Sequence record: OK254198.1
Length of the DNA stretch: 64,000 nt
Direction: 5' to 3' (one strand)
Source: Escherichia phage PSD2001
Below the pieces are notes generated by a model. It worked only from the letters and a program-made list of their open reading frames with translations, searched no databases and had not been told where the DNA came from. The position numbers and the translations under genes are program-made. Of this stretch, positions 23,419 through 57,020 are shown in pieces. The first letter of the stretch is position 1. The number at the start of each line of letters is the position of its first letter.

Positions 23419-24109
<691 letters not shown>

Positions 24110-24110
<1 letters not shown>

Positions 24111-24787
24111 TATATTACCTTATTAATTTTATCAAAAAGTTCTTCGAGTGTGCCATCGTTTTTAATAACAATGTCACTAGCTAGTGGTGGAAGTCCAGCT
24201 TCCGTAATGTGTGTATCAGTAGAATGATTTGCTTCATCGCGTTCTACAAAGATTATTGTAGCACCCATCGCCCGAAGCGAATCAAGTTCGTTCTTTTGGC
24301 GAACATCTGGGACAACGTAATATTTATATCCAGAATAGAGGTTGTCAAGATAGTCGCAGGCAAAAGTTTTAATCCAAAACATGCTGTCGAACTCTGTACA
24401 AACAATATCAGTTCCAAGGGTCTGCATGAAACGTCTAACTGTCCAGGGCTCAACATTATTTAGTGTGTGAAATTCAATAATTTTACGAACCATATCCGGA
24501 TTCGGAAGGTCAAGATTGTATTGTTGTTTCAACCATTCAAGAGCATCAACCAGAAGAATATAAGCTTCGGTGTTGTTCATTATTAAGGTTTTTTCACGGT
24601 CGTAACCTTGTCCATCAAAATTTTCCAGGGTCAAATTGTGTGGCAGGTCTTGACGAATCCACGCGTTATAAAGCGCTTCTTTAATCGGACCTGCAAGCTG
24701 CCACTTTGTTCCATTTTGACTAATAACATAATCAGCAGTCGTATCTTTACCACTGCGTTTTTTACCCACAATCGCAATTAATTTCAT
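24110..24787 (-). CDS. 1: Deoxynucleoside monophosphate kinase (gp1)
   Basis: P-loop 'GKKRSGKDTTADY'; 'YQLAGPIKEAL', 'TDTHITEAGLP' as in T4 gp1. Confidence 0.93.
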
Positions 24788-25383
24788 ACGTTTCTCATAG
24801 ATGGATGCATTGACTTAGACCGGATTTCCTGTTGCATTGCTGCATTACTATCAATCTGTGGTCTACCTTCTATTATTATACCATCAATTTCTACAGCAAA
24901 AGACTTAAAGTTAAAAGTCGCTGTTGCATTGATAGCCGGGTCAGAATCTTCTTTATATGAATACTGAATCTCTGACAAGTCGGACGGCCATGCCCCATAG
25001 TAATGGATTGACATGACAATTTTGTCCTTGTTGTTATCTAAGATATGAAGCGTGACCGCTTCGGGACGACCCTTTGGATGCCATGCTTTTGATTCGTGTG
25101 TGATGTAGTTGTTGAGCGAGAGCATCCATTTATAGATATCAAGCCATGCTCTTAGGTCTTTGTCACACAGAAAGTTAACAATCAGCGGGTCGAATTCTAT
25201 TGTACTACCAGGAAGACTGGAGCGATTTATACCTTGTGTTCCCCCAGGGACATCCGTCACAGGAATGTGAACTCCTGGGAGGGTAACGTCTTGAACGTTG
25301 AGTTTAAAGGTCTGTGTGAGGTTTGAATCGCTTACCTCTAATATAAAGTTAGTCGTGTTAGTTTGATTATATAAACCTGACAT
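24784..25383 (-). CDS. 3: Tail tube terminator / sheath stabiliser gp3
   Basis: 'MSGLYNQTNTTNFILEV...' matches T4 gp3 N-terminus; ORF-track N-extension rejected. Confidence 0.85.
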   Translation of the reverse strand: MSGLYNQTNTTNFILEVSDSNLTQTFKLNVQDVTLPGVHIPVTDVPGGTQGINRSSLPGSTIEFDPLIVNFLCDKDLRAWLDIYKWMLSLNNYITHESKAWHPKGRPEAVTLHILDNNKDKIVMSIHYYGAWPSDLSEIQYSYKEDSDPAINATATFNFKSFAVEIDGIIIEGRPQIDSNAAMQQEIRSKSMHPSMRNV

Positions 25384-25468
25384 AGTGCGCCTTGTTTGCT
25401 TTAAAACAATCAGTGTTATAATGGTTCTAGACCTTTTGTCCATACCAATAACACTGACCGATAATAGA

Positions 25469-26293
25469 TTATGAATTTCTCCATACTTTCTGGGAAGAGA
25501 ATCTTTTGCCTTTCGACATAAATTGTTGCAACGGAAGCATAACAACGTTTGCCCAGTCGCTGGGCTTGATTTCAGTAATAGTACCTTTTATATTGCCAGG
25601 TATATATGCTTTAATCATCTGGTCAGCCCCTTTAAATCCCTTCACTTTTGACCAATCAATCTTCAGATGAGTCTTGTTCGTAATCGTAGGAGTATTAGCA
25701 TATTGCTTAAGAAGTTCCTCAAGGAACTCTTGACGTGCCTTCGGTGGAATATAGTGCAAGTTCAAACCATACATCAAATTATGCTTACCTAGCCCAAGAT
25801 AAATGATTAACGGATATTTGTCCCAGTACGGAAGAGTATCCTTATGCTTTGCATCATAGATATAAGCATAAATCTTACCTGGTTGAGGTTTAGCCGTTAC
25901 GTGGCCACGAACTGATTTCTTAATTGTCTCAGCGAACCATCTGGCAGATTTGGTGTTGCTTGCAGCGCCTTCGTTAGCAATCTTATCTCTTATGCTCTTT
26001 CTAAAGCTATTCACCATTATCAGCTGGCGTTCAGCCTTCGTAAGTTTACCAGCAGGTTTCTTTTTGAGCTTGGATACTTTATAAGCAGTCTGAATTCTCG
26101 AATGGTATCTTGACATGCTTTTGGTAAAGGTCGAATAGTTGATTCCTTTCTCTTCAGCAAACTTCTTCGAGGTCATTCCCTTTTCTTTTGCTGTATAAAA
26201 TTCAACCCCTATCTCAACCCATTGTTGTTCGGATTTACTGGGTTTCGGACCTGGTTTATCTGCAGATTCATTGATAAATGTAAAAATACTCAT
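25469..26293 (-). CDS. 2: DNA end-protector protein gp2
   Basis: 274 aa from 'MSIFTF'; position between 3 and 4 and length as in T4. Confidence 0.8.
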
Positions 26294-26937
26294 CCTTTCC
26301 TCGCTTTGCAATTATCGCCATGCCATCTTTTAAATGGGGCTGGTTTGCATTCTAATCCACAGTGTGGGCATATTTTGGTAGGTGTATTTAGAAAACCAAT
26401 TCTCATATTATTTTTATGTTCTTCTTTACGAGGAACTCCTAATAAATGTTGCCTAACCGCTTCATTTGCACTTTCAGGGCGCTTTTTACCACGGCCCGCA
26501 TTGCCAATTTTTATCTTATGTTCTTCGGATAATTTTTTACCCTTGTGGGCTAAACTCATTTTTAAACGAGATTCTTTTGACGGTTTTTTACCGGGTTTTC
26601 CTCGCTGGGCATCACCAATACGTTTTCTAACAGAAGCGGAACGGCCGCGACCTCCTCTGCCTCCCAAATCAATGTTGTATGTGTCAGGTCGATTAACAAA
26701 TTCTTGGTCGACCAAATCAGCCTCTTTAGCAAAGGCTAAATTTTCGTTCTCTGATTCATTGATGGAATCAAAAACAAATAAAATATCCTTTTGAAAATTT
26801 TCAATACCGTATTTTTTATGAGCTTTTAATATCAATTTCCCTGTACCCATATACTTGTCATCGATATTGTCGGTTTTGTGCACACCGATGTAAATTTTGT
26901 TATTAATTTTATTTGTTATTTGATATACCGTGTACAT
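26290..26937 (-). CDS. GIY-YIG homing endonuclease (Seg-like) with NUMOD3 repeats and C-terminal Zn finger
   Basis: '[17 protein letters not shown]...YMGTGKL'; basic '[28 protein letters not shown]' repeats; inserted between genes 4 and 2. Confidence 0.85.
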
Positions 26938-27389
26938 TATAAACCCTTATAACCCATTTTTCTAAGTGCATCTTCAGTAATCAATCTAAACTGGATGCCC
27001 ATTTTATCAGCCACAGCTTGAGCAGCTTTCCATTTATCCGAATTAACAGCCCAAACATACATTTCGTTCATGAATCTCTTCTTGCTCGCGGCAGTCGTAT
27101 TAACTGGTTTTGCTGGAGGTCTTGTTTCCTTTTTGGGTTTAACCTCAAAGAAAAATTGTTGACCATTTGAAAATTTTACCCACATATCCATGTAATACCT
27201 GCGTTTTTTACCATCCGCATTACTAAAATACGGAATGATAACGGTCTCTGACCCCCATTGCACCACATCTGGATGATTATCCAACCAGTTAAATACAAAT
27301 TTTTCCCAGTTTGACCTGTAGGTGATTTTCTTCCAGTCTCCTTTGTACTTTGCAACGTTTTTCGGTTGCCATTTCCCGGAGTATGCCAT
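26937..27389 (-). CDS. 4: Head completion protein gp4
   Basis: 150 aa; 'MAYSGKWQPKN...ITYRSNWEKF...IPYFSNADGKKRRYYMD' as in T4 gp4. Confidence 0.92.
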   Translation of the reverse strand: MAYSGKWQPKNVAKYKGDWKKITYRSNWEKFVFNWLDNHPDVVQWGSETVIIPYFSNADGKKRRYYMDMWVKFSNGQQFFFEVKPKKETRPPAKPVNTTAASKKRFMNEMYVWAVNSDKWKAAQAVADKMGIQFRLITEDALRKMGYKGL

Positions 27390-27405
27390 ATAGCCTCCTA
27401 ATAAA

Positions 27406-27413
27406 TATTGATA
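27406..27413 (-). promoter_or_regulatory. Late promoter TATAAATA for gene 4 (near-consensus TATAAATG for gene 53 overlaps on plus strand)
   Basis: Exact TATAAATA on minus strand ~20 nt upstream of gp4 ATG. Confidence 0.6.
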
Positions 27414-27437
27414 TACTTATTTATAAATGGAGGCTTT

Positions 27438-28040
27438 ATGCTTTTTTCATTTTTTAACCCAATTGATTATGATGCTAAAACAATCAGAAAAAACTCGGCA
27501 TCATTAACGAAAGAAGACGTCTTAAGCATCCCAATGACTGACATCTTCAGAAACTATCGCGCCTATTTTGATAAGGTTGCGGTTAATTATACACCGAAAA
27601 CATATTACATCGCTGGAGCTCCAAGACCTGAAGAACTTGCATATCAGCTCTATGGTAATACTCAACTCTATTGGGTTCTCCTTATGCTTAATGATATCTA
27701 TGACCCGTATTATGGTTGGCTCGGCTCTCAGGAATCATCCTATCAGGCATCTATTCAGAAATATTCGAATGTCGGAGGTAACCAGGTCCTTTATCATGTG
27801 AATGAAGATGGTGAGAAGTTCTGGAACCTTGTATCTTATCCTGATAATCCATACACCTGGTACGATAAAGGTGACCGCAACAGATTATATCCGCAATACG
27901 AAGGCCCATTGGCTGCAGTGGATATCTATGAAGATGCTATCCGTAAAAATGAATACAAACGCGAAATAAAAATAATTGACCCAGAAGATATTGAGTCATT
28001 TATTTCTGCGCTTATCCGTGAAATGGAAAAGGCACTCTAA
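27438..28040 (+). CDS. 53: Baseplate wedge protein gp53
   Basis: 'MLFSFFNPIDYDAKTI...IPMTDIFRNY...QLYWVLLM...DPYYGW' as in T4 gp53. Confidence 0.9.
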   Translation: MLFSFFNPIDYDAKTIRKNSASLTKEDVLSIPMTDIFRNYRAYFDKVAVNYTPKTYYIAGAPRPEELAYQLYGNTQLYWVLLMLNDIYDPYYGWLGSQESSYQASIQKYSNVGGNQVLYHVNEDGEKFWNLVSYPDNPYTWYDKGDRNRLYPQYEGPLAAVDIYEDAIRKNEYKREIKIIDPEDIESFISALIREMEKAL

Positions 28041-28675
28041 TGTTTTATTATGTATATAAAATAACCAATAATATTAACGGCAAATTTTATATCGGGGCGC
28101 ATAGTACATCAAATATGGATGATGGATATATGGGCTCAGGTAAATTAATTAAACGTGCCATACTAAAATATGGCATTGAAAATTTCAAAAAAGAAATATT
28201 AAAATTTGTTGATTCCAAACAAGAAATGTATGAACTTGAAAAGGAACTTGTTGTTCTTAATGAAAACTCATACAATTTAAAACCAGGCGGCTCCGGTGGA
28301 TTTTTAAAACATGATAACTTTAAAGGTCGAAAACATAGCCAGAAAACTAAAGATATTATGAGTGCAAATAACTCAGGTAAAAATAATCCCATGTATGGAA
28401 AAAAGCGAGACCAGCATGGAGTAAATGCACCAAATTATGGCAAAAAATGTTCAGAAGAGAAAAAGAAGATTCTTTCTGATAAGCTTAAAAAGCATTTTGA
28501 AAATGAGCAGACAATAACTAAGAACATGGGGTTTATACCAACGTCGGTTGAAACCCGTTATGTGTCTCGACATATTAAAAAGTTAGGATTTGATTTTTAC
28601 CAATTCAATCGAAATATATGTGAGCATAATATTTCCATAGTTAAAAATATTTTAAAACAGAGGAAGGCTCTATGA
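28040..28675 (+). CDS. GIY-YIG homing endonuclease (Seg-like), paralog of 26290..26937
   Basis: 'VYKITNNINGKFYIGAH...YMGSGKL'; start overlaps gp53 stop (TAATG) and stop overlaps gene 5 start (ATGA). Confidence 0.85.
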   Translation: MFYYVYKITNNINGKFYIGAHSTSNMDDGYMGSGKLIKRAILKYGIENFKKEILKFVDSKQEMYELEKELVVLNENSYNLKPGGSGGFLKHDNFKGRKHSQKTKDIMSANNSGKNNPMYGKKRDQHGVNAPNYGKKCSEEKKKILSDKLKKHFENEQTITKNMGFIPTSVETRYVSRHIKKLGFDFYQFNRNICEHNISIVKNILKQRKAL

Positions 28676-30414
28676 TTAACATGTCAGATAATGTAAGTTG
28701 GTTCGTCGGGGTTGTCGAAGACCGAATGGACCCACTTCAGCAAGGTCGTGTTCGTGTTCGTGTATGGGGTATGCATCCATATGAGAAAGCACAAGGGCCC
28801 GTTAAAGGTATCAGAACCGAAGACCTTCCTTGGATGTCTGTATTGATGCCGACATCATCTGCATCAGTTTCTGGGATTCAAACTGCCATGACTGGTATGG
28901 TCCCAGGTACTCAAGTATATGGTCACTTTTTAGACAAGTGGAAGCTCAACGGTCTTGTTATTGGTACGTATGGTTCAGCCTCAAGACAAAAAGCAAATCC
29001 TAACGAAGGTTTCTCTGACCCCACAGGGCAATACCCACTTTATGTTGGTAATGATGCTGCGGCGCTTAACCGTGGTGGTGAAGTCGGTTATGATGCAACT
29101 TCGAACGTAATTCAGGATGCAAACCTTGACCTTGGTATTAACCCCGATGGCCTTGATTTGAGTCAGGTTAAACCAGATGATAATCCTAATTTCACAATTG
29201 AAAATATGCTCCACCGTGATGAAGGTCTTCGACTGAAGGTATATTGGGACACCGAAGGTTATCCTACTATAGGTATAGGGCACTTAATTGCACCACAACC
29301 TATTAGAGATATGAATCAGATAAACAAAATATTATCTAATCAAATAGGCCGCGAAGTTAAAGGTAACCCTGGTGCAATATCAATGGACGAGGCTTCTAAG
29401 TTATTCCAAGAAGACCTTAAAAAAGTCCAAAACGATATAGGTAAGCATAGTGTTGTGGGTCCGGTTTATAATAAAGAAAACCGTTCGAGACAAATGGCTC
29501 TTGAAAACATGGCTTTCCAAATGGGATTAGGCGGATTGGCTAAATTCCGTGGAATGCTTAGCGCAATGTTAGCCGGAGATTATAAGAAAGCATTTGATGC
29601 CGCTCGTGATTCTGTATGGTTTAACCAAACTAAAGGCCGTGCATCAAGGGTGTCAATGATTATCCTCACAGGTAACATGGAATCATATGGTATTATGGCC
29701 CCTAAAGAAAGGTCATTTAAAGGGCGTTCATATAGGATGATTCAAACCTTTGCAGCTCCTGCAAATTCTGACCCAGCCGACCCGTGGACCCCAGAAGATA
29801 CAAGGATTCTATTTAAAGAGCCAGAATCAAGTTACAAGGGCGAATATCCTTACGTGCAGACAATGCAAACTGAAGGCGGTCATATTCAGGAATTCGATAA
29901 TACCCCTGGACAAGAACGTTATCGACTGATTCACCCGACCGGTTCCTACGAGGAAGTTGCACCAGATGGTCGTAAGACTTCGAAGACTGTAGCTGATGGT
30001 TATTATATGACCCAGGGCGATTCGAGTACTTACGTTGGTGGTAATAATAAAGTCAACGTTGGTGGTGATGAAACCTATTATAATATGGCTAACGTTCGCC
30101 GTCAGACCGATGGAAACGAAACCATCCATATTCGTGGTAACGAAGAGAAAACTGTAGAAGGTAATGGGACTCTTCGTGTTAAAGGCAACGTTACTGTTAT
30201 TGTTGAAGGAAATGCTGATGTTACTGTTAAGGGGGATGCGACTACAATGGTAGAAGGCAACGAAACTCGCACAACTAATGGTAATTTAAATTGGACTGTA
30301 AATGGTACCGTATCGTGGACTTGTGCAGGTGCTTGGTCCGAGACTATGGCTTCAATGAGTTCTATTGCATCGGGTCAATATACTATTGATGGTTCGAGGA
30401 TTGACATTGGCTAA
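28672..30414 (+). CDS. 5: Baseplate hub / tail lysozyme gp5
   Basis: 580 aa; internal T4-lysozyme-like domain 'LKVYWDTEGYPTIGIGHL'; beta-helix repeats at C-term. Confidence 0.95.
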   Translation: MINMSDNVSWFVGVVEDRMDPLQQGRVRVRVWGMHPYEKAQGPVKGIRTEDLPWMSVLMPTSSASVSGIQTAMTGMVPGTQVYGHFLDKWKLNGLVIGTYGSASRQKANPNEGFSDPTGQYPLYVGNDAAALNRGGEVGYDATSNVIQDANLDLGINPDGLDLSQVKPDDNPNFTIENMLHRDEGLRLKVYWDTEGYPTIGIGHLIAPQPIRDMNQINKILSNQIGREVKGNPGAISMDEASKLFQEDLKKVQNDIGKHSVVGPVYNKENRSRQMALENMAFQMGLGGLAKFRGMLSAMLAGDYKKAFDAARDSVWFNQTKGRASRVSMIILTGNMESYGIMAPKERSFKGRSYRMIQTFAAPANSDPADPWTPEDTRILFKEPESSYKGEYPYVQTMQTEGGHIQEFDNTPGQERYRLIHPTGSYEEVAPDGRKTSKTVADGYYMTQGDSSTYVGGNNKVNVGGDETYYNMANVRRQTDGNETIHIRGNEEKTVEGNGTLRVKGNVTVIVEGNADVTVKGDATTMVEGNETRTTNGNLNWTVNGTVSWTCAGAWSETMASMSSIASGQYTIDGSRIDIG

Positions 30415-30448
30415 TATACTTCCAATGAGCACTGACTTAGGAGACTCC

Positions 30449-30946
30449 ATGGAAGGAGCTTCAATCGATGTTACGTTTACAGCTCAATTAGAAACAAACG
30501 AAACATTAGTCGAAATAAATATAACTGAATATGAGGCCACCCCTGGCGTTAATGTTGAGGGTAATCATCTTTATGGTGTTTATGAATCCGTGTTCGGATT
30601 TGCAGATGATGCGCTTAAATACCGACTTAACGATGAATTTGAAACTGCCGGTTCATGGGAAGACCTTCCTGCAGATAAGAGTACTCAATTGTATCTCTGG
30701 AGGGCTCCAGCGAGCCTCCAGAAGGTCTTTTCATACACGGTAACCCTAACCTATGACTTTCAAGAAGAGAGCTCTGGTGGAGACACAGGGAGCTCTGGCG
30801 GAAGTAATAGCCGTGCAGGTAATGAGACCGACCCACCTCCTGCTCCAGTAAGAAAGACAATGACAAAAGTTTACACAAAAACTATCGTTGGTAACTGGTC
30901 AAGATGGGCAGATAAATTGCGTTCATACGTATACGCGAGGGATTAA
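30449..30946 (+). CDS. Hypothetical baseplate-region protein (position of T4 5.1)
   Basis: 165 aa from ATG with SD AGGAG after gene 5 stop. Confidence 0.6.
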
Positions 30947-31239
30947 TGGCTGGATTAAGTTTTAATCAATGTGTTACAGCAGGCCACGAAGCATGGCCAC
31001 CGACTGTAATTAATGCAACTCAAGGTAAAGTATTCACCGGGGGAATTCCAGTATTAGTTGCCGGAGACCCTATTACCGAACATACCGAAATTAAAAAACC
31101 ATATGAAACTCACGGCGGAGTAACACAACCGCGCACATCAAAAGTATTCGTTACCGGTAAGAAAGCTGTTCAAATGGCAGACCCGATTTCATGTGGTGAT
31201 ACTGTGGCTCAAGCCTCATCAAAAGTCTTTATAAAATAG
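30946..31239 (+). CDS. 5.4: Baseplate spike-tip PAAR-like protein gp5.4
   Basis: 97 aa; '[19 protein letters not shown]...[17 protein letters not shown]'. Confidence 0.85.
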
Positions 31240-38252: not shown

Positions 38253-40063
38253 TGAAACAGAATTTAAAAATTGGCAATATGGTTGATGATGGTACTGGTG
38301 ATTACCTTCGTCTCGGCGGTCAAAAAATAAACAATAACTTTGACGACCTTTATTATCAGCTGGGTGACGGTGAAAATCCTCATGCGGCTGGTGCATGGAA
38401 AACTTGGACTACACAAGAAGGCACCGAGTTGTCTGCTGTTATGGGTCGAAGCTATACTATCGATACATCAGCCGGTGCGGTTCGAGTCGTCCTCCCGAAA
38501 GGAACAACTCAAGAATACAATTATGTAATTCGATTGCGTGATGTGTTTGCTACCTGGCAAATCAACCCGGTGACAATTGTTCCTGCAGTCGGGGATACGA
38601 TTAAAGGCTCACCAAATCCAGTAGAAATTAAACGCAACTTAGCTGACCTTGAACTTGTATATTGTTCACCAGGTCGTTGGGAATATATCGATAATAAACA
38701 AGTCGATAAAATTTCAAATAACGACGTTGCTACGGTTGCATCCCAACAGTTTATTGCTACCGAAGGGCAAACTGACTTTATCAATGTGTTTGGTGCTATT
38801 CCGTATAGCGTATCGAACTTAGAAGTCAAACATCGTGGTAACGACCTGTTTTATGGTAAAGATGATATTTTCGACCCGGTGAATGCTGAATTTGGTTCCC
38901 CTGGTGCAAACCCTGGTGAAATCGTTGCGCTTGATGGTAAAAGCATCCGTCTGAAAATGCCATGTGCTGAAGGTGATACTGTTATCATCCGAACATTTAA
39001 TGATGGTATTGCTCAATGGCGTAGTTCGTATAATCGTCGTGATATACTTGTTCGTAGTCAAGACAGGGCCAAAGAAACAACAATTAATGGCTCTTTGATT
39101 GTTACGGATTTGACAACCAAACACACCTTTACAATTGAAGAACTTGGTATTTCTCCGGGTAGCCCAATTAACCCAAACGCATGTCAGGTATTCATTAACA
39201 GTATTTTACAACACCAAGCCGGGACCGCAGGAACTCCAGTATTTTATTGCGAAGGTGCACAAGGTTCTACTGCTGCAGAATGTAGTGCAAATGGTGGTAG
39301 CTGGTCTGAATCGACCCAGGATTATTTGCTGCAATTTGATGATGATAACCGTATCGAAGGCATTAGCATTTATCGTGAATTTGAAGACGGTGATATTCTG
39401 TCGGTCATTTGGTACAATAACGATATCGGCACAACTATGACCATGGATGAAATCCGTGATGAGACTGATACTCTTTATGTTTCTCAGGGAAATACATTGA
39501 GCCTAACCGGTCGTGTGCGTATCACAGATTTTGATAATCCGTTTGCACCAAACGTTGAACCAGTCGGTCTTCAGGAAGTTGTTCCATCTTCTGTTGGCGC
39601 TATCTTTGAATTATTCTATCCGGTTGGCACAATTTACGAAAATACGGTTAACCCGAATAACCCGGTTACTTATATGGGATTCGGTTCATGGAAACGTTTG
39701 AAAGAACGTGTAATCGTTGCCTGGTCTGATGACCCTGCCTCAAACTTCCATACAAACAATAATGACCTGGATTCTGGTGGTAACCCACAAGCGACAGCGG
39801 GTGGCACAGGTGGTAGTGTTGAAGTTCATATTAAAGATATAAATGTACCTAAACTTGAAACCGATGAGAAAGTATTAGTTGTTGATGATAATGGTCCGAT
39901 TGTTGTCGGCGGTTGTCAGGTAGACCCAGATGCACAAGGTCCAGCCTATACCAAATACAGAGAAGACAAAGTCACTATTAATCAGGCACAAGACCCTCAA
40001 GCTCAACCGGTTTATACAATGCCTCCATATTTGATTGCTCATCGCTGGGTAAGGATTGCTTAA
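38252..40063 (+). CDS. 10: Baseplate wedge protein gp10
   Basis: 603 aa; order and size. Confidence 0.9.
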   Translation: MKQNLKIGNMVDDGTGDYLRLGGQKINNNFDDLYYQLGDGENPHAAGAWKTWTTQEGTELSAVMGRSYTIDTSAGAVRVVLPKGTTQEYNYVIRLRDVFATWQINPVTIVPAVGDTIKGSPNPVEIKRNLADLELVYCSPGRWEYIDNKQVDKISNNDVATVASQQFIATEGQTDFINVFGAIPYSVSNLEVKHRGNDLFYGKDDIFDPVNAEFGSPGANPGEIVALDGKSIRLKMPCAEGDTVIIRTFNDGIAQWRSSYNRRDILVRSQDRAKETTINGSLIVTDLTTKHTFTIEELGISPGSPINPNACQVFINSILQHQAGTAGTPVFYCEGAQGSTAAECSANGGSWSESTQDYLLQFDDDNRIEGISIYREFEDGDILSVIWYNNDIGTTMTMDEIRDETDTLYVSQGNTLSLTGRVRITDFDNPFAPNVEPVGLQEVVPSSVGAIFELFYPVGTIYENTVNPNNPVTYMGFGSWKRLKERVIVAWSDDPASNFHTNNNDLDSGGNPQATAGGTGGSVEVHIKDINVPKLETDEKVLVVDDNGPIVVGGCQVDPDAQGPAYTKYREDKVTINQAQDPQAQPVYTMPPYLIAHRWVRIA

Positions 40064-40728
40064 TGAAAACATTAACGAATAAAAAGGCTGGAGTAATTTC
40101 CCGCCTTGCTAGTTACTTAGAATTTCAAAATACATCAAAAAATATTACGGCTGTCATGGGTCAACGAGCAATCGGCGGCCCATCCGCAACACAAACAACC
40201 GAGGGTATTTTTTATCCAACAGTTCAGAGCGCAATAGATGATATTGCGTTTCGATATGAGCTTCCGGTTGGCAGTGTAATTACTAATACGAATAACCTTT
40301 CTCCTGCAGCAATCAGCCAGTCGGATAAAATTAAATTTACCGGGTCTATTTCTGGTGCTGGGGTTGGTGATACTGTTTTGTTTTTCATTTTTGGTATTCC
40401 AGTTGAGGTTATTGTCGGGGATTCGGCTGTATTAGTTGCTTCCAAGGTTAACGATGCTTTGCTGACGGCTGTTGCTGATAGCTTAATCGTGTCAAGCTCT
40501 GCAATTGATAGTGTGGACCAGTCTATATTAAATATTACATATAACGACTACCAAAACCATAATTTTGCACCTTTTGCTCAATATGGTTGTACGCTTAGCC
40601 AGACTATTACACAGCAACCGCGCGGTGGTTATGGTTCCTGGGAATATCTTGGAACTTCAACCCAGACATTATCAGGTGGCACAGCAAATGGCGCAATTTC
40701 ACTTTACCATTATAAGCGAGTATCGTAA
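40063..40728 (+). CDS. 11: Baseplate wedge protein gp11 (short tail-fiber attachment)
   Basis: 221 aa; 'KAGVISRLA' N-terminus as in T4 gp11. Confidence 0.9.
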   Translation: MKTLTNKKAGVISRLASYLEFQNTSKNITAVMGQRAIGGPSATQTTEGIFYPTVQSAIDDIAFRYELPVGSVITNTNNLSPAAISQSDKIKFTGSISGAGVGDTVLFFIFGIPVEVIVGDSAVLVASKVNDALLTAVADSLIVSSSAIDSVDQSILNITYNDYQNHNFAPFAQYGCTLSQTITQQPRGGYGSWEYLGTSTQTLSGGTANGAISLYHYKRVS

Positions 40729-42278
40729 TGACAACGACTAACACGCTAAAACACATTAGCGATAAATCCGAATATAAAACATTCGACCCGACGGGAACAG
40801 CTTTCCCGTCGACTGTTACCAACGTACAAGAGGCTTTAGGGTCTCTTAATAAAATTGCGTTAGATGGATATATCCCAGCCTCTTCCGAAACGACCGCAGG
40901 GCTCATCAGACTAGCCACCACACAAGAAGTTATTGATGGTATTAGTCCAGACTCTGCAGTTACTCCAGCGACCTTAAAAGCTCGTTTAGACATCCCTACG
41001 CAAGCCACAGAAACTTATGTCGGTATTACCCGTTATGCAACTAATGCCGAAGCAATTGCCGGAACAGTAACCGATGCGGCTATTGTTCCATCTTCATTAA
41101 AAGCAACAATTGATGATGTTTTTACTGTTCGTGTCGGTACTGAAAATAACCTGGGTGTTCTTCGTATTAGTACCGAGGATGCAGCTTTAGCTGGTACAGA
41201 TGATACAACCGCTATGTCTCCGTTGAAAGTTGCTCTGGCAATTGGCAAAGCAACAGCAGCTCTTCCGACTTATTCAACTGCCACACAAACTGTTTCTGGT
41301 TTAGTACGAATTGCTACAAATGCTGAAGTGCAAGCAGGAACCCTGGGCGACGGTGTAGCAATTTCTCCGGCAGGTTTAAATGCTCGCACAGCAACACAAG
41401 ACCGCACAGGGATTATTCGTCTGGGCAACCAGTCAGAGATTAATAACAGTGCTGATGGTGTTGCAGTAACTGGCGCAACTCTTAATGGTCGTGGTGCTAC
41501 AACCGATATTCGTGGCGTTGTTAGATTAACTACTCAGGCTGGGGTTGCTCCTGGTGGTGATGGTGCCGGTGCACTGGCTTGGAACGCAGATGTAATCAAC
41601 ACTCGCGGTGGTCAACGAATTAATGGAAGTCTTTCTTTAGATTATATTTCCACCGGCAATTTTGATTCCAATACAGCTCATATGGGCGGTCAATTACTTT
41701 CGACACAGCGTTATGCTTCTGAACGGGTTCCAGTTGGAACGGTGATGATGTTCGCAGGTGATAGTGCTCCTCCTGGCTGGATTATGTGTCATGGTGGCAC
41801 CGTTAATGGTGACCAATTCCCTGACTATCGAAATACTGTTGGAACTCGTTTCGGTGGCGATTGGACCAACGTCGGTATTCCTGATATGCGTGGTTTGTTT
41901 GTTCGTGGTGCTGGTACCGGTGGACATATTCTGAATAACCGCGGTCAAGATGGTTATGGCAAAGACCGTTTGGGTGTTGGTTGTGATGGTTCATGGGTCG
42001 GTGGTGTACAAGCTCAGCAAATGTCATATCATAAACACGCGGGTGGTTGGGGTGAATACCAACGTAACGAAGCCCCATTTGGTGCATCAGTTTATCAGGG
42101 TTATCTGGGCACAAGAAAATATGCAGACTGGGATAACGCTTCATATTTTACTAACGATGGATTTGAACTCGGTGGCGGCAGAGATGCTTTAGGTACGTTA
42201 AACCGTGAAGGTCTTATTGGTTATGAAACTCGCCCATGGAATATGTCTTTAAACTATATTATCAAAATTCATTACTAA
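40728..42278 (+). CDS. 12: Short tail fiber gp12
   Basis: 516 aa; 'IGYETRPWNMSLNYIIKI' C-terminus and repeated ...AIAG... units as in T4 gp12. Confidence 0.92.
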   Translation: MTTTNTLKHISDKSEYKTFDPTGTAFPSTVTNVQEALGSLNKIALDGYIPASSETTAGLIRLATTQEVIDGISPDSAVTPATLKARLDIPTQATETYVGITRYATNAEAIAGTVTDAAIVPSSLKATIDDVFTVRVGTENNLGVLRISTEDAALAGTDDTTAMSPLKVALAIGKATAALPTYSTATQTVSGLVRIATNAEVQAGTLGDGVAISPAGLNARTATQDRTGIIRLGNQSEINNSADGVAVTGATLNGRGATTDIRGVVRLTTQAGVAPGGDGAGALAWNADVINTRGGQRINGSLSLDYISTGNFDSNTAHMGGQLLSTQRYASERVPVGTVMMFAGDSAPPGWIMCHGGTVNGDQFPDYRNTVGTRFGGDWTNVGIPDMRGLFVRGAGTGGHILNNRGQDGYGKDRLGVGCDGSWVGGVQAQQMSYHKHAGGWGEYQRNEAPFGASVYQGYLGTRKYADWDNASYFTNDGFELGGGRDALGTLNREGLIGYETRPWNMSLNYIIKIHY

Positions 42279-42286
42279 GGACCAAA

Positions 42287-43912
42287 ATGATTAATAAACT
42301 CAGTCTCAAAGAACTGCCGTATAGCATCGGTATTCCAGACGAAGGTCAACAGAGAATTCGTTGGATACAAAACGGCGATTGTATGACTGCGGCCAGTACC
42401 AAATATGGTTATGATGGTAATTTGAACGCCGCTGCAGTTGGCGTTCAAACAAACGTAGATACACTCGACGACAACTCAAATGCATCTAAAGAAAAAATCA
42501 ACGAAATTATTGATAATGTCAATAATATTCAGGAAGCTTTGGATATAACAACTAACACAGAAGTTGTTAAACAAATTGAAAAAAACCGTACGGACATTCT
42601 TGACCTTGATGAACGTCAATTTAATACCGAATTGCTGTCAAGTGAAACATCCGAAGGTCTTAAAACGTTAAAAGAAGATGTTGGTGCTTATGACCCGTTA
42701 ACCGATTCATATTATCGCACAGTTCGTAATGACCTCGTATGGATTAAAAATGAATTAGGCCAGTATGTTGACCAAGATATAAATGGTCTCCAGGTTATCG
42801 ACAATCCGTCAAAAGGCATGAAACGCCGCATCATCGATAACAGTTCGGCTATTGTTGCTCATGGAGTTCGTATTAAGACTCTTGAAGATAACTATCATGA
42901 TTCTGATGTTGGTTCTCTTAACATAAAAGTAATTAAAATTCGTGAAGAATTAGGTGAGTCTACTTTAGCAACAGGTAAACCGGCTGTATTTGTTAGACTG
43001 AATACTCTTGATGGTAAAGCGGTCGAAATTGATGAAGATATTACCAACATTCAAGAAGCTATTGGTTTTGGTACAGGGATTGCAATCACAACTCGCGTTG
43101 AAAATCTTGGTGGACGTGTTTCGGTCAATGAAACAGATATTGCGAATATCAAACCAAGACTTGCTAAGGTTGAAGCTGATATCGGCACCGCTCTGGAACC
43201 ATTAACAATTAATGGTCGAATCAGTGCTTTGCGCTCGGATGTTAATGGCTTACAGGTTGTTGTTGGTCAGGATTCAAGCTCTGGTTTACGCGGAACCACT
43301 GCATGGCTTTCTCAGAGAATTGGTACAGAGCAATCTCCGGAGCCAAACACTATCACGTATAAGTTGAATGCGACCACTACACTGGCTAATGAAACCGCAT
43401 CAGGTCTTCAGGATGTACAAGCCGAAATCGGTACAAATAACACTGGTATGAAAGGTTCTATTTTGACTTTAACTAGTCAGATGAACGGAACTAACCCTAA
43501 CGGTGCTACCGTGGCTGAACGTGGTGTTCTTCCGGTTGTAATTAACTTGGATATGCTGATGGCGTCCAAGCTGAACGATGCACCATTGGACAATAAGTTA
43601 TATGGTCGCAAGCAAGGAACCTGGACTGAAATTATCGATACCAAAACCGAGATTGATGCAATTAAACTCGATACTGCGAAAATTGCACCATTAACCACTC
43701 GCGTGACAACCCTTGAAGGTACAGTAACTCCGCTCCCTGGTCGCCTGGATGCGGCCGAGGCGAAGATAACTACTTTAGAAGGTAAAGTATCAGCCTTAGA
43801 AACAGAGCTCGCCAAAAGGCCTCCTGTCGCTCCTGCAGCTGATGGTCTCCCTTATGTGCTCGTTGATAATGCATGGGTTCTTTTGTCTACATTCGTGACT
43901 GTTGGACCATAA
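42287..43912 (+). CDS. wac: Fibritin (whisker) Wac
   Basis: 541 aa from ATG with SD AAGGACC; coiled-coil repeats; C-terminal foldon-like 'GLPYVLVDNAWVLLSTFV'. Confidence 0.88.
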   Translation: MINKLSLKELPYSIGIPDEGQQRIRWIQNGDCMTAASTKYGYDGNLNAAAVGVQTNVDTLDDNSNASKEKINEIIDNVNNIQEALDITTNTEVVKQIEKNRTDILDLDERQFNTELLSSETSEGLKTLKEDVGAYDPLTDSYYRTVRNDLVWIKNELGQYVDQDINGLQVIDNPSKGMKRRIIDNSSAIVAHGVRIKTLEDNYHDSDVGSLNIKVIKIREELGESTLATGKPAVFVRLNTLDGKAVEIDEDITNIQEAIGFGTGIAITTRVENLGGRVSVNETDIANIKPRLAKVEADIGTALEPLTINGRISALRSDVNGLQVVVGQDSSSGLRGTTAWLSQRIGTEQSPEPNTITYKLNATTTLANETASGLQDVQAEIGTNNTGMKGSILTLTSQMNGTNPNGATVAERGVLPVVINLDMLMASKLNDAPLDNKLYGRKQGTWTEIIDTKTEIDAIKLDTAKIAPLTTRVTTLEGTVTPLPGRLDAAEAKITTLEGKVSALETELAKRPPVAPAADGLPYVLVDNAWVLLSTFVTVGP

Positions 43913-43914
43913 CA

Positions 43915-43935
43915 AAAGGGCTTCGGCCCTTTTTT
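43915..43935 (+). terminator. Intrinsic terminator after wac
   Basis: AAGGGCTTCGGCCCTT hairpin + TTTTT. Confidence 0.8.
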
Positions 43936-43937
43936 CG

Positions 43938-43945
43938 TATAAATA
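43938..43945 (+). promoter_or_regulatory. Late promoter TATAAATA (gene 13)
   Basis: Exact consensus 19 nt upstream of ATG. Confidence 0.7.
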
Positions 43946-43963
43946 CAGTAAAGAGGAAAACAT

Positions 43964-44902
43964 ATGGCAACTGAATCATACAACCCGAAACAATTAAAAG
44001 ATGCAATCCTTCGTCGTCTTGGTGCTCCAATCACGAATATCGAAGTTACAACCGAACAGGTTTATGATTGCATCCAGCGCGCATTAGAATTATATGGTGA
44101 ATATCATTATAATGGTTATAACAAAGGTTATCAGGCTTTTTATATCGGTCATGATGAAGTTTCACAACAGAAATTCCGTGATGGTGTTTTCGATTTAAAA
44201 GGACGTAATATTTTTGCAGTAACGCAGATTATTCGTACTAACGTCGGTTCATTAACTTCGATGGACGGACAAGCCACATATCCGTGGTTCACAGATTTTG
44301 TTCTGGGGCTGGCCGGGATTAACGGTGGAATGGGTAGCTCATGTAACAGCTTTGGTCCAAATGCTTTTGGTGCGGACCTTGGTTATTTTACACAGCTTAT
44401 GCAATACCGTTCAATGATGCAAGACCTGATGGTTCCGCTGCCAGATTACTGGTATAATGACGATACCGAACAACTTAAAATTATGGGCAACTTCCGCCAG
44501 GGAGATGTGATTGTAATTGAAGTTTATACCAAATCGTATAACGGTGTGGATTCAATGGTAGGCAATACAGCTGGCTATGGTTTTGCTTCAGCCGATTGTG
44601 ATAATCCGTGGAATGCTGGCGCACAGTGGGATAACCCAGCGCGCAGAATAAGCGGTATGAGAGCCGGTGAGGACCTTGGACTTCAAGATGGTGCATACAA
44701 CAACCGTTGGGTGAAAGACTATGCCACAGCGCTCGTTAAGGAAGTTAACGGCAACGTATTGGCTAAACACCAGGGAATGATGATGCCAGGTGGCGTCACA
44801 GTTGATGGTGTTCGTTTAATTGAAGAAGCTCGTATGGAAAAAGAACGTCTTCGTGAAGAACTTGACCTGCTGGATGCACCGACTCCTATATTGGTGGGCT
44901 AA
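43964..44902 (+). CDS. 13: Neck protein gp13
   Basis: 312 aa; order and size. Confidence 0.9.
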
Positions 44903-45687
44903 TGGCTACTTATGACTCAAGATTATTCGCCCGGCTCGAAGACGGGACCGGGTATGACAATACTAATGCTACAGAGATATTAAACCCTTATGTAAACTTT
45001 ATGCATCATGAAAATACCCAGACTTTAGCTGATGCTATTGTTGCCGAAAGTATTCAGATGCGCGGAATGTCTCTCTATTATATCCCAAGACAATTCGTTA
45101 AGCCGGATTTGTTATTCGGTGAAGACCTCCAGAGTAAATTTGATAAAGCATGGAAATTTGCAGGTTATCTGGATACGTTTGATGCATATCAGGGTGATGG
45201 TTCTATCTTTAGTAAATGGGGTATGTCTGTGAACGATGAAATCACAATATCGATTAACCCTAATCTGTTTAAACATCAATGCAACGGAACCGAACCTATT
45301 GCCGGGGATTTGATTTATTTCCCTCTTGATAACAGTCTGTTCGAAATTACATGGGTGCAACCTTACGACCCATTCTATCAGGTAGGTCAAAACGCCATTC
45401 GTAAAATCACCGCGAGCAAATACATTTACTCCGGGGAAGAACTTAAACCTGAATTGCAACGGAATGAAGGTATTAATATTTCAGAATTCAGCGAGCTCGA
45501 TTTACAACCAATCCACAATATCGATGGCCTTACAGATATCAGCGATATCCCTTATGCAGAATCTGATGAGATTAACGCAGAAGCAGCTGAATATGTTAAA
45601 CCATATTTTGTGCAGAATGGCCGTGGACTTGAGGCTCCTCCGAAGGCAAAACAGGATAGCTTTGACGATAGTTTCTTTGATGAATAA
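44902..45687 (+). CDS. 14: Neck protein gp14
   Basis: 261 aa; order and size. Confidence 0.9.
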
Positions 45688-45730
45688 ATACATTTATTAA
45701 TGCGCCCGAATTGGGCGCCTGGAGGTTACT

Positions 45731-46602
45731 TTGTTTGGGCATTTTTATAATTCGTCTCTGCGTCGCTATATCGTTTTAATGGGCGATTTATTTTCCCATG
45801 TACAAGTGGCCAGAACCAGAGAAGACACTGGACTTAAATATATTAAGGTCCCTATTTCTTATGCTTCAAAAGAAAAATTCATGATGCAGCTTGGAAAATG
45901 GACCGCTATTCAGAATACACCTACTCCTGACATGACACCGCAAGAACGTGCTGCTCAGAAGGCTAAAATCGAGACCGTATTGCCCCGTATGAACCTACAT
46001 ATGGTTGACTTGATGTATAACGGGCAATATAAAACGGCTCTCCAGAATCACACACAGGCGCGATTTGCTAATAACGACCCTCGCAAGCAGATATCTCAAT
46101 ATTCTCCGGTGCCGGTCAAAATGATTTTCGAGCTTGGAATATATACAAGGCATCAAGATGATATGTTCCAGATTATCGAACAAATCATGCCTTACTTCCA
46201 GCCACATTTTAATACAACCATCACCGAACTTTATACGAATGAAATTACGTTCGAACGTGATATAAGAATCGTGCTTCAGTCCATTGCTATGGATGAGCAA
46301 ATTGAAGGTGATGCAATGACTCGCCGTAGACTCGAATGGTCCATTATGTTCGAAGTCAACGGTTGGTTGTATCCACCGGTTAAGGAAGTGGCCGGGGAAA
46401 TCCGTACTATCTATCTTGACTTCTTTGCAAATTCCAGAGAGCTTGCACCGGAAGGTAATTTCGAATCTGTTGACTCGGAAGCCGTTCCACGAGACGTCGA
46501 CCAAGAAGACTGGCAAGGTGAATCTGTTCAAACCTACTCGCAGGATATTCCTGTACCGGTTGACCCAGCACCGTCAGCCCCAAGAAAAAATAGGGTACCA
46601 CT

Positions 46603-46606
<4 letters not shown>
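45731..46606 (+). CDS. 15: Tail sheath stabiliser / completion protein gp15
   Basis: '[13 protein letters not shown]...[19 protein letters not shown]' as in T4 gp15. Confidence 0.9.
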
Positions 46607-48913
<2,307 letters not shown>

Positions 48914-48942
48914 AAGTAAAGCAAACTATTAGAGGACTCAAA

Positions 48943-50922: not shown

Positions 50923-50975
50923 TTATCATCGCTTAGAATTAATCAGTTAGAAACCGTAGAACCATTATACAGTGT

Positions 50976-50983
50976 TATAAATA
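50976..50983 (+). promoter_or_regulatory. Late promoter TATAAATA (distal, gene 19)
   Basis: Exact consensus in 18-19 intergenic region. Confidence 0.55.
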
Positions 50984-51062
50984 AAAGCATAATCGGTTCT
51001 ACGGACTCCTGTGATTGATTCTGGGAAGCCATTATCTTGAGATGATGAATCATATTACCTAG

Positions 51063-51070
51063 TATAAATA
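51063..51070 (+). promoter_or_regulatory. Late promoter TATAAATA (proximal, gene 19)
   Basis: Exact consensus ~50 nt upstream of gene 19 ATG. Confidence 0.6.
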
Positions 51071-51122
51071 CATGCATCAGGGACGCGTTCACGCGACCTG
51101 TGTCTATAAAGAGGATTCCTTA

Positions 51123-51614
51123 ATGGAGTTGACCGATATCACACGTGCTTTCGAATCCGGCGACTTTGCTCGCCCTAACCTGTTCGAAGTCGAAATCCCA
51201 TTCCTGGGTAAAAACTTTGCTTTCCATTGTAAAGCAGCCCCGATGCCTGCTGGCATTGTAGAAAAAGTTCCTGTCGGTTACATGAACCGTAAAATCAACG
51301 TTGCGGGCGACCGTACATTTGATGACTGGACTATTACGATTTATAACGACGATGCTCATAAAGTTCGTCAAGCAATTGTTGATTGGCAAAATCTGTGTCA
51401 CGGTATGACTAACGAAATCACCGGTGCAGCTCCTGCTGATTATAAGAAAACTGCTACTGTCCGCCAGTTCCATCGTGATGGCAAGACCGTTACGAAAGAA
51501 GTTGTTATTACCGGCATGTGGCCAACCAACGTTGGGGAAGTCCAGATGGATTGGGACAGTAATAATGAGATTGAGACGTTCGAAGCGACGTTCGCAATTG
51601 ACTGGTGGGAATAA
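51123..51614 (+). CDS. 19: Tail tube protein gp19
   Basis: 163 aa from 'MELTDITRAFESGDFARPNLFEVEI' (T4 gp19 163 aa); ORF-track N-extension rejected. Confidence 0.93.
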   Translation: MELTDITRAFESGDFARPNLFEVEIPFLGKNFAFHCKAAPMPAGIVEKVPVGYMNRKINVAGDRTFDDWTITIYNDDAHKVRQAIVDWQNLCHGMTNEITGAAPADYKKTATVRQFHRDGKTVTKEVVITGMWPTNVGEVQMDWDSNNEIETFEATFAIDWWE

Positions 51615-51615
51615 G

Positions 51616-51623
51616 TATAAATA
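51616..51623 (+). promoter_or_regulatory. Late promoter TATAAATA (gene 20)
   Basis: Exact consensus; followed by GAGGCTTCGGCCTC hairpin. Confidence 0.6.
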
Positions 51624-51671
51624 AAGTTATTATGAGGCTTCGGCCTCATTTCCCAAACTTCGGAGACTCTA

Positions 51672-54566: not shown

Positions 54567-54569
54567 ATA
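54562..54569 (+). promoter_or_regulatory. Late promoter TATAAATA (gene 22)
   Basis: Exact consensus 30 nt upstream of ATG. Confidence 0.65.
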
Positions 54570-54598
54570 AATGTATATCTTAACAACAGGACTACAAA

Positions 54599-55417: not shown

Positions 55418-55438
55418 TTTAATAAGGTTATACAACAC

Positions 55439-56998: not shown

Positions 56999-57020
56999 TC
57001 CTAGATTAAGTTAAATAAAA

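Follow-up and report, generated by a model that had tools for sequence, protein, structure and literature searches.

Escherichia phage PSD2001 (sequence record OK254198.1) is a T4-like coliphage of the genus Gaprivervirus. In the stretch of 64,000 nucleotides analysed here (hereafter, the window), two Seg-like genes lie on either side of the divergent pair formed by gene 4 and gene 53, which raises the question of how they reached these positions: by inverted duplication of one gene, or by two independent invasions, the alternatives named in the original prediction. Two divergent late operons run across the locus. On the minus strand, gene 4 (head completion; 26937–27389; Pfam Tn7_TnsA-like_N), present as a divergent form designated allele A, is followed by HEG1, a Seg-type GIY-YIG homing endonuclease gene (26290–26937), and by gene 2 (DNA end protector; 25469–26293), assigned from its ORF and annotated homologues. 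On the plus strand, gene 53 (baseplate wedge; 27438–28040; Pfam Phage_gp53, E 1.5e-73) is followed by HEG2, a gene of the same type (28040–28675), and by gene 5 (baseplate hub/tail lysozyme; 28672–30414), an ORF with the Pfam domains Gp5_OB, Phage_lysozyme, and Gp5_C. HEG1 occupies the gp4|gp2 junction and HEG2 the gp53|gp5 junction, with gp2 and gp5 outermost; the two ORFs, which encode 215 and 211 aa, are intact and lie at the positions given by the original prediction. The TAA of gp4 overlaps the ATG of HEG1 by 1 nt, the TGA of HEG1 overlaps the ATG of gp2 by 4 nt (ATGA), and the same pattern was found for gp53, HEG2, and gp5, so that the anticipated embedding in late operons by stop/start overlaps was seen at both genes. 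HEG1 and HEG2 are the only Seg-like genes in the window, and both are free-standing, each between complete ORFs. Neither a group I intron nor any other Rfam family was matched in 24000–31000 at E ≤ 1, and inteins, which had also been mentioned, are not involved at either gene.

Judged from sequence, both proteins are ordinary new members of the known T4 Seg family and predicted nucleases. Their recognition as Seg-like GIY-YIG genes at the 2/4 and 53/5 junctions was borne out by Pfam, PHROG, and fold matches. Against Pfam GIY-YIG (PF01541; gathering cut-off 22.6), HEG2 scored 24.3 bits and HEG1 21.1 bits, just under the cut-off; HEG1 was also just below the cut-off of the Pfam family SegE_GIY-YIG, and HEG2 scored 27.0 bits against PF19835 (cut-off 25). 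NUMOD3 was detected above the Pfam cut-off in both, more strongly in HEG2 (E 1.3e-12) than in HEG1 (E 3.1e-5), and both matched PHROG 314 “homing endonuclease” (E 2.4e-53 for HEG1 and 5e-49 for HEG2). With either protein as query, a direct search of PDB sequences was uninformative, and a fold search was needed for the link to I-TevI. The N-terminal domains of both AlphaFold models had pLDDT values of 93–98, and the top PDB matches of both models in Foldseek were the I-TevI catalytic domain structures 1mk0 and 1ln0, with a target-normalised TM of 0.55–0.64 and probabilities of 1.00 for 1mk0 and 0.92–1.00 for the 1ln0 chains.

In an alignment with I-TevI and T4 SegA–G, the Tyr of GIY, the Tyr and Gly of YIG, the Glu, and the Asn were kept in both HEGs, at invariant or nearly invariant positions. 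Mutated catalytic residues, which the original prediction had named as counter-evidence, were not visible in this alignment for either gene. For the Glu (E72 in HEG1, E67 in HEG2) to match I-TevI E75, the MAFFT alignment has to be shifted by one column, and the Asn (N88 in HEG1, N79 in HEG2) aligns with I-TevI N90. The FEKRWKRH stretch of I-TevI is deleted in the Seg proteins, and the equivalent of R27 is not placeable by sequence alignment; the nearly invariant Lys of the GSGK motif (K35 in HEG2) is a candidate for it.

The C-terminal parts of the two proteins differ. HEG1 consists of a catalytic domain (aa 1–95, nt 26653–26937, minus strand), five NUMOD3-like helices (aa 100–184, nt 26386–26640), and a CCHC zinc finger (aa 188–212, nt 26302–26376); in the AlphaFold model (pLDDT 90.9) the five helices are spaced about 17 aa apart. 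The finger ligands are C190, C193, H206, and C210, and the alignment showed that these CCHC residues, together with Y5, Y16, G18, E72, and N88, are conserved across 35 homologues. HEG2 has a catalytic domain (aa 1–88, nt 28040–28303, plus strand; pLDDT >94) with Y6, Y17, G19, E67, and N79 in place, a NUMOD3 module (aa 96–125, nt 28325–28414), and a helical tail (aa 139–211, nt 28454–28672) modelled at low confidence (pLDDT 47–82). This tail is homologous to the CCHC finger and aligns with the HEG1-type finger, but the ligand positions now hold T172, V175, and G183, and the zinc ligands are gone at every position examined in the alignment. Thus, the predicted difference between the tails holds for HEG1, with its NUMOD3-type repeats and conserved CCHC finger, whereas HEG2 does not merely have a basic tail, as had been proposed, but carries NUMOD3 and a ligand-less homologue of the finger. 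When the isolated C-terminal tails of HEG1 and HEG2 were searched against Pfam, only sub-threshold noise was obtained.

The description of the two catalytic domains as closely related proved overstated. Their amino acid identity is 54%, and each is nearer to T4 SegB (60% for HEG1 and 66% for HEG2); the values for SegD are 56 and 58%. The complete proteins are 41% identical and alignable over the N-terminal 134 aa only, and the nucleotide identity of the genes is 73–77% over about 150 nt. These values bear on the proposal that one HEG underwent a local inverted duplication about the promoter region of genes 4 and 53 and that the tails diverged later. The mirror-image positions of the genes, the inverted repeats between their 5′ ends (98 nt at 73% and 53 nt at 77%), and the 54% identity itself speak for such an event. 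Against it, each catalytic domain is closer to SegB and SegD than to its counterpart, the similarity ends after about 134 aa, and close relatives carry the genes singly: HEG1 alone occurs in Yersinia phage P8 and HEG2 alone in P896 and KIT01, whereas P479 has both and VR20, SP18, and T4 have neither. In addition, HEG1 orthologues are found at the same junction in distant genera without HEG2, and HEG2 is nucleotide-identical across genera independently of HEG1. Inverted duplication was rejected because of the low mutual identity, the greater closeness to SegB, and the single-HEG relatives, and we regard it as extremely improbable. Two independent invasions, the other predicted alternative, fit both the greater closeness to SegB and the occurrence of all four presence/absence combinations, with precise borders, among collinear relatives. 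The comparison with HEG-less relatives that the original prediction had suggested defined the insertion borders at both junctions.

At the 53|5 junction, the HEG2 insert is 635 bp in size. The gene is identical at 618 of 618 nt in the window, P479, and Dhakavirus KIT01 and at 617 of 618 nt in P896, and the flanks of KIT01 are only 68–72% (gp53) and 82% (gp5) identical to those of the window. IME540 and FB possess an 83%-nt variant at the same site; the FB copy is frameshifted, and therefore decay does occur. In every HEG2-carrying genome, the last codons of gene 53 (28026–28040) are recoded (GAA AAG GCA CTC TAA), and the comparison showed that a recoded stretch of up to 33 nt at the 3′ end of gp53 is constant and accompanies HEG2 across backgrounds. 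On the other side, junction alignment showed that 28661–28675 (plus strand) is the native 3′ end of gene 53 from the recipient (AAG GCT CTA TGA). Read in the same frame, it encodes the C-terminus of HEG2 (..KAL*), and it provides the Shine–Dalgarno sequence (SD) and the ATGA overlap for gene 5, which is predicted to be translationally coupled to HEG2. The bases at 28661–28675 match the most flank-similar HEG-less genome in each case: VR20 for the window, RZ for P479, phage 212 for P896, and IME540 for KIT01. The co-converted flanks are thus at most 33 nt on the left and at most 12 nt on the right. Identical copies of HEG2 in diverged flanks and the very short conversion tracts point to a recent and precise transfer and support the view that HEG2 is mobile and has spread horizontally between genera. 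Since the tracts are so short, the HEG2 cleavage site probably lies at or very near the 53/5 junction.

The 4|2 junction is built in a similar way but has a very different flank. Junction alignments showed that the native 3′ end of HEG-less gene 4, GGAAAGGATGA, is retained at 26290–26300 (minus strand); it forms the last codons of HEG1 (..RKG*) and gives the SD and the ATGA overlap to gene 2. In 22 insert-less Gapriverviruses, homology ends exactly at window position 26300. Gene 2 is 98.5% identical at the nucleotide level to that of HEG-less VR20 right up to the junction (98–100% among the relatives compared), whereas gene 4 is only 70.6% (nt) and 77.5% (aa) identical to gene 4 of VR20. Allele A was present in all five distinct genomes with a 2/4 insert and in none of the 22 without one, and its carriers contain either of two unrelated 2/4 endonucleases, HEG1 or a PHROG 681 nuclease. 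A third gene 4 allele occurs together with an HNH gene, the third HEG, which lies in the 4/53 spacer. The divergent block has the insert as its exact border on one side and the conserved 4/53 promoter spacer on the other, and the five allele A genomes differ from each other in other flanks, namely the 3′ half of gp53 and the 3/2 insert. No donor of allele A was found among T4, Mosigvirus, Karamvirus, Lazarusvirus, and two metagenomic contigs with HEG1 orthologues, all of which are 65–74% identical (nt). The 4|2 junction is also the site of HEG1 orthologues (53–72% aa identity) in metagenomic contigs and in phages of at least four genera; the carriers include Mosigvirus p000v, Karamvirus RZH, Acinetobacter Lazarusvirus KARL-1, and two metagenomic lineages.

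This distribution supports the mobility of HEG1, and allele A is a candidate for a cleavage-resistant flank that was transferred together with it. As the whole of gene 4 (about 450 bp) moves with HEG1, the cleavage site is probably within gene 4 of HEG-less phages. Within the Gapriverviruses, HEG1 occurs with allele A only; therefore, its spread there could reflect ordinary recombination of a 1.1-kb block rather than nuclease-driven homing. It might also be argued that the divergence of gene 4 has nothing to do with the endonuclease, the gene being independently hypervariable and its link to the insert being due to common descent of the few genomes concerned. The genus contains three gene 4 alleles, all without an identifiable donor; allele A is known from five, perhaps phylogenetically non-independent, genomes, and the TnsA-like nuclease fold of gp4 leaves room for other selection. 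Independent hypervariability would nevertheless account poorly for a block whose edges are the insert and the 4/53 spacer while gene 2 on the opposite side is nearly unchanged, for an allele common to carriers of HEG1 and of the PHROG 681 nuclease, for the association of the third allele with the HNH gene, or for the dissimilar outer flanks of the five genomes. We consider this explanation unlikely.

The spacer between genes 4 and 53 (27390–27437), recognised by late-promoter motif search, is predicted from the T4 late-promoter consensus to contain divergent late promoters. The motif TATAAATA is located at 27418–27425 on the minus strand, and candidate boxes on the plus strand are AATAAATA (27400–27407) and TATAAATG (27422–27429). 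The T4 4/53 spacer has the same divergent arrangement, and the region is 100% conserved in most Gapriverviruses. No exact late promoter (TATAAATA) was detected directly upstream of either HEG, and one-mismatch matches occurred at chance frequency. The lack of their own late promoter fits the “promoter-less cassette” pattern of segC, segF, and segG (PMC2988022). A sigma-70 promoter/terminator scan revealed no clear excess (19 versus 14.0 ± 3.3 in shuffled sequence, and 5 versus 3.4 ± 1.9, respectively), and the best “-10” was rejected as a HEG promoter because it overlaps the start codon of HEG1. T4 intron endonucleases have hairpins that sequester the ribosome-binding site; none stood out at the four gene junctions (z-scores −0.64 to +0.67).

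In all likelihood, the locus arose by two unrelated insertions of promoterless, free-standing Seg-type cassettes at 4|2 and 53|5, with homing as the route that we infer. Identity, architecture, insertion borders, polymorphism, horizontal spread, and purifying selection can be read directly from the comparisons, whereas expression route, cleavage, and target positions are inferred. Each cassette replaces the ATGA overlap of the host genes: the 3′ end of the upstream gene is recoded or diverged and stops in TAATG, which contains the HEG start, and the endonuclease ORF ends by taking up, in frame, the last codons native to the upstream gene, so that the SD and ATGA are rebuilt for the essential gene downstream. 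The HEGs would be carried on late polycistronic mRNAs from the divergent promoters and may be translated by coupling or from weak SDs. During mixed infection, the HEG-less allele carried by a relative would be cut by the enzyme, and repair of the double-strand break would copy the cassette together with some flank.

Alternatively, one or both ORFs may be inactive and immobile remnants, retained for the SD and start context of genes 2 and 5 or for a co-opted DNA-binding part. Strong purifying selection acts on both HEGs over the whole ORFs, including the catalytic domain, which argues against this: HEG1 shows 21–24 synonymous and 0–1 nonsynonymous differences from P479 and P8 (dN/dS about 0–0.01), and HEG2 compared with the IME540 variant gives a dN/dS of 0.08 for the whole gene, 0.12 for the unique tail, and 0.03 for the catalytic domain. 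The loss of the finger ligands in HEG2 and the frameshift in FB would suit a remnant, as would the translation signals of the downstream gene inside the 3′ end of each HEG, which favour retention, and the occurrence of HEG1 beside one gene 4 allele only. Yet both proteins retain the catalytic Tyr, Tyr, Glu, and Asn, HEG2 is nucleotide-identical amid flanks of 68–82% identity with very short conversion tracts, and in I-TevI the zinc finger is a distance determinant that is dispensable for binding. Inactive remnants thus appear quite improbable compared with the two insertions. A bolder version of the insertion reading, which is possible though rather doubtful, would have HEG2 as an active inter-genus mover that, unlike the characterised Seg enzymes with their cuts hundreds of base pairs from the gene, homes in the manner of an intron endonuclease, cuts within about 30 bp of the gp53/gp5 stop–start junction with a remodelled, zinc-less finger, and inserts as a 635-bp cassette whose in-frame fusion to the last codons of the host gene restores translational coupling; the gene 4 alleles would then reflect an arms race among at least three nucleases (Seg, PHROG 681, and HNH Mob-like) for a 3-kb gene 3-2-4-53-5 hotspot.

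SegB and SegC of T4 have demonstrated activity, whereas that of HEG1 and HEG2 is predicted from sequence. In addition to the SegB values given above, the catalytic domains are 55% (HEG2) and 53% (HEG1) identical to SegC. Like SegB and SegC, the two proteins have NUMOD3-type modules after the catalytic domain and are encoded by free-standing genes between phage genes; however, the C-terminal halves are unrelated beyond NUMOD3, and the tblastn coverage of HEG2 by SegB/SegC ends at aa 109–135. As with segC, a promoterless cassette would use an existing polycistronic message (PMC2988022). In T4, segC lies between 5.1 and 5.3, only about 1.5 kb downstream, but there is no insert at 2/4 or 53/5.

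The Seg-like genes at 4|2 in Mosigvirus p000v/HX01, Karamvirus RZH, and Acinetobacter phages KARL-1/Konradin/Acj61 encode full-length HEG1 orthologues (53–66% aa identity). These Straboviridae genes share architecture, CCHC finger, junction, and orientation with HEG1 but differ in their diverged sequence and in other stop/start junction details, and metagenomic relatives (67–72%) have the same placement; the searched literature yielded no experimental characterisation of the Straboviridae orthologues. I-TevI has the same catalytic fold (Foldseek probability 1.0), and HEG1 also resembles it in the succession of catalytic domain, linker with minor-groove helices, and zinc finger. In contrast to I-TevI, the HEGs are not intron-encoded, their catalytic domains are about 25% identical to that of I-TevI, and they have no detectable match to its C-terminal HTH and no late promoter/operator arrangement of their own that we could find. 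Intron-encoded enzymes cleave within 25 bp of the insertion site, and the short conversion tracts of HEG2 suggest similarly close cleavage (PMC2988022). SegF and SegG cut in the upstream gene (56 and 32, respectively), hundreds of base pairs away, with co-conversion of flanking markers (PMC2988022). HEG1 with its diverged 450-bp upstream gene resembles these pairs, although the identity of the catalytic domains is 20–34% and the HEG1 cleavage position is deduced from comparison.

In GenBank relatives, genes of the HEG1 and HEG2 type already bear the annotation “homing endonuclease,” “putative Seg-like homing endonuclease,” or “hypothetical protein”; our literature searches found no papers describing the insertion sites 4|2 or 53|5. 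The present data leave current understanding unchanged and add two Seg lineages, for each of which the natural insertion site in essential late genes of T4-like phages is clearly delimited and both HEG-plus and HEG-minus alleles exist in nature. The locus offers clear examples of a promoterless HEG cassette that keeps the translational coupling of its essential neighbours, of an identical cassette recently transferred horizontally between phage genera, and of a structural-gene allele replacement linked to a HEG. The data also fit the view of one report (PMC10055350) in which nuclease genes mark the boundaries of recombination in phage genomes.

Sliding identity values further revealed that gene 53 is a mosaic, with a P479-like 5′ half and a P896/VR20-like 3′ half. 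The window has the appearance of a recombinant whose crossover lies near 27700, and its double-HEG genotype need not mean two homing events in this genome. The three gene 4 alleles found within one genus diverge at an inter-genus level, and the gene 2–gene 5 neighbourhood also varies by a 3/2 insert among the allele A genomes.

The window comes from a Gaprivervirus, a T4-like coliphage. The closest records were P479 (96% over 25400–29400) and TH41 (97.6% over 40000–60000), and no genome identical to the window was found in the phage collection searched. On the minus strand, gp2 (25469–26293), with gp3 upstream of it, HEG1 (26290–26937), and gp4 (26937–27389) are separated by a 48-bp spacer (27390–27437) from gp53 (27438–28040), HEG2 (28040–28675), and gp5 (28672–30414), which lie on the plus strand. 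The ORFs, domain matches, and coordinates agreed with the original prediction of Seg-like homing endonuclease genes (HEGs) at the 2/4 and 53/5 junctions, and the predicted interval runs exactly from the stop codon of HEG1 to that of HEG2. The expected overlaps were also present: TAA of the upstream gene and ATG of the HEG have one base in common (TAATG), and TGA of the HEG overlaps the start codon of the gene that follows (ATGA).

Both HEG1 (215 aa) and HEG2 (211 aa) are included in PHROG 314 (“homing endonuclease”). The NUMOD3 domain was over the threshold in both proteins, with a stronger match in HEG2; GIY-YIG and SegE_GIY-YIG were over the threshold in HEG2 and slightly under it in HEG1. 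Alignments to I-TevI, T4 SegA–G, and also 23 and 34 database homologues demonstrated that both proteins keep the GIY Tyr, the YIG Tyr/Gly, the catalytic Glu (E72 in HEG1, E67 in HEG2), and the conserved Asn (N88 and N79, respectively). The mutated catalytic residues considered in the original prediction were not visible in either protein, although sequence alignment did not reveal which residue corresponds to I-TevI Arg27. The I-TevI catalytic domain was the top PDB match for both AlphaFold models (pLDDT 90.9 for HEG1 and 77.5 for HEG2, whose catalytic domain exceeded 94). The tails had been expected to differ, with NUMOD3 repeats and a Zn finger in one protein and a basic tail in the other, which was half right. 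Beyond its catalytic domain, HEG1 has five NUMOD3-like helices about 17 residues apart and ends in a CCHC finger (C190, C193, H206, C210) kept across homologues. However, HEG2 also carries NUMOD3, and its tail aligns with the CCHC finger of relatives such as the homologous protein P0068, with T172, V175, and G183 at the ligand positions; the tail is nonetheless under purifying selection (dN/dS 0.12). HEG1 and HEG2 are unremarkable additions to the Seg family; GenBank records of relatives already name them homing endonucleases, putative Seg-like homing endonucleases, or hypothetical proteins.

Comparison with insert-less relatives, as had been proposed, fixed the borders at both junctions. The HEG-less gp53/gp5 junction reads ...GAG AAG GCN CTA TGA, with the overlap ATGA, and the HEG2-carrying junction reads ...GAA AAG GCA CTC TAA TG[HEG2]...CAG AGG AAG GCN CTA TGA, with an insert of 635 bp. 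The left junction copy is recoded, in one and the same form across all genomes with HEG2. The right copy is that of the HEG-less genome with the most similar flanks (VR20 for the window, RZ for P479, phage 212 for P896, and IME540 for KIT01), which argues that HEG2 closes (..KAL*) with three or four codons that belong to the recipient's gp53 and are read in the same frame. Through them, gene 5 keeps its native SD and start context. The 2/4 junction has the same build: the native terminus of gp4 (TGG AAA GGA TGA) serves again as the end of HEG1 (...AGG AAA GGA TGA).

Either an inverted duplication of one HEG or two independent invasions had been suggested as the origin of the pair. The catalytic domains share 54% aa identity, but T4 SegB is closer to each of them (60% to HEG1, 66% to HEG2) than they are to each other; protein similarity stops after about 134 residues, and the DNA is 73–77% identical over about 150 nt only. 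Among close relatives, P479 carries both genes, Yersinia phage P8 only HEG1, P896 and KIT01 only HEG2, and VR20, SP18, and T4 neither. The low DNA and protein identity, the position of SegB, and the occurrence of all four presence/absence combinations speak strongly against the inverted duplication, and the distribution fits two independent invasions. HEG1 and HEG2 also lie on segments of different histories. Gene 53 of the window is mosaic, 100% P479-like to about 27700 and then 98–100% P896/VR20-like, pointing to a recombination breakpoint there. Left of this point the window is 86–98% identical to P896, and right of it 76–92% identical to P479.

HEG2 is identical at 618 of 618 nt among the window, P479, and the Dhakavirus KIT01, whose flanks are 68–72% (gp53) and 82% (gp5) identical to those of the window; beyond HEG2, no more than 33 nt on the left and 12 nt on the right are shared. 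This marks a recent and precise transfer of HEG2 between genera, and the shortness of the transferred tract on both sides is suggestive of a target located at the 53/5 junction or close to it. IME540 and FB have a HEG2 variant at this site (83% nt identity, dN/dS 0.08). The copy in phage vB_EcoM_FB (MT682711, 76737–77370; protein P0002) is frameshifted; tblastn aligned it in two pieces, and the annotated protein has 170 aa. The frameshift looks to have removed the C-terminal tail, and this copy may be decaying. HEG1 differs from the P479 and P8 copies by 21–24 synonymous and 0–1 nonsynonymous changes. It belongs to a site-faithful lineage: in Mosigvirus, Karamvirus, Acinetobacter Lazarusvirus, and two lineages from metagenomes, orthologues (53–72% aa identity) likewise lie at gp4|gp2. 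The comparative data yield specific, easily tested predictions on the putative cleavage and target sites of both enzymes.

Compared with the VR20 allele, gene 4 of the HEG1-carrying genomes (allele A) shows 70.6% nt identity and 77.5% aa identity, a distance as large as that of gene 4 of T4; around it, gene 2 is 98.5% and the 4/53 spacer 100% identical. Allele A is limited to five of 27 distinct Gapriverviruses, all with a 2/4 insert (HEG1 in two, a PHROG 681 nuclease in three). This linkage is reminiscent of homing by SegF and SegG, in which the cut lies far off and co-conversion tracts are long (PMC2988022). A donor lineage for allele A was sought, and none was found. In Pfam, gp4 hits the endonuclease fold Tn7_TnsA-like_N (E 1.1e-21), and it is called “head completion nuclease” in one GenBank relative.

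The gene 3-2-4-53-5 cluster is a hotspot: at least four nuclease genes of three families use four sites in it. The 242-aa PHROG 681 endonuclease, unrelated to HEG1 and linked to the same gene 4 allele, lies at gp4|gp2 in RZ (locus L008, 1191–1919), DK-13, and fPSFA (L011, 1850–2578); it has a weak treble-clef zinc-finger match, and its end runs into the native GGATGGAAAGGATGA. A 235-aa HNH/NUMOD3 Mob-like HEG (PHROG 655) is located in the 4/53 spacer, equivalent to window position ~27388, in UPEC07 (L010, 2277–2984), phage 212 (L012, 1618–2325), TH22, and TH55. It goes together with yet another allele of gene 4, the third, whose nt identity is 73% to VR20 and 66% to the window. In the phage 212 annotation, gp4 is truncated (357 nt) and gp53 is only a misc_feature. 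At the gp3/gp2 junction (25471), an HNH Mob-like HEG of 657–675 bp (VR7ORF161c type, PHROG 655) is present in P479, VR7, VR25, fPSFA, and UPEC07 and absent from the window. In genomes with the 3/2 insert, identity is just 70–78% over 50 nt at the 3′ end of gene 2 (25500–25549); the same holds for the insert-less RZ, which may thus bear the trace of a lost HEG or have a resistant allele. The metagenomic contigs with HEG1 orthologues have an extra ORF of 202–220 aa between gp2 and gp3 (L019, 3993–4655; L020, 3978–4586), which had no Pfam match and may be another mobile nuclease.

The 4/53 spacer contains an exact T4 late-promoter box, TATAAATA, on the minus strand (27418–27425) and near-consensus boxes on the plus strand, and the divergent 4/53 layout is the same in T4. 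No late-promoter box was found directly upstream of HEG1 or HEG2, and searches for an RBS-sequestering hairpin and for an intron signal found neither; the simplest inference is therefore that both genes are expressed within late polycistronic mRNAs. T4 segC, segF, and segG are likewise expressed via polycistronic mRNA (PMC2988022). The whole window holds 19 exact copies of TATAAATA (5.2 expected). The five left of 27425 are all minus-strand copies and the 14 right of it all plus-strand copies, which fits the divergent orientation of the late genes.
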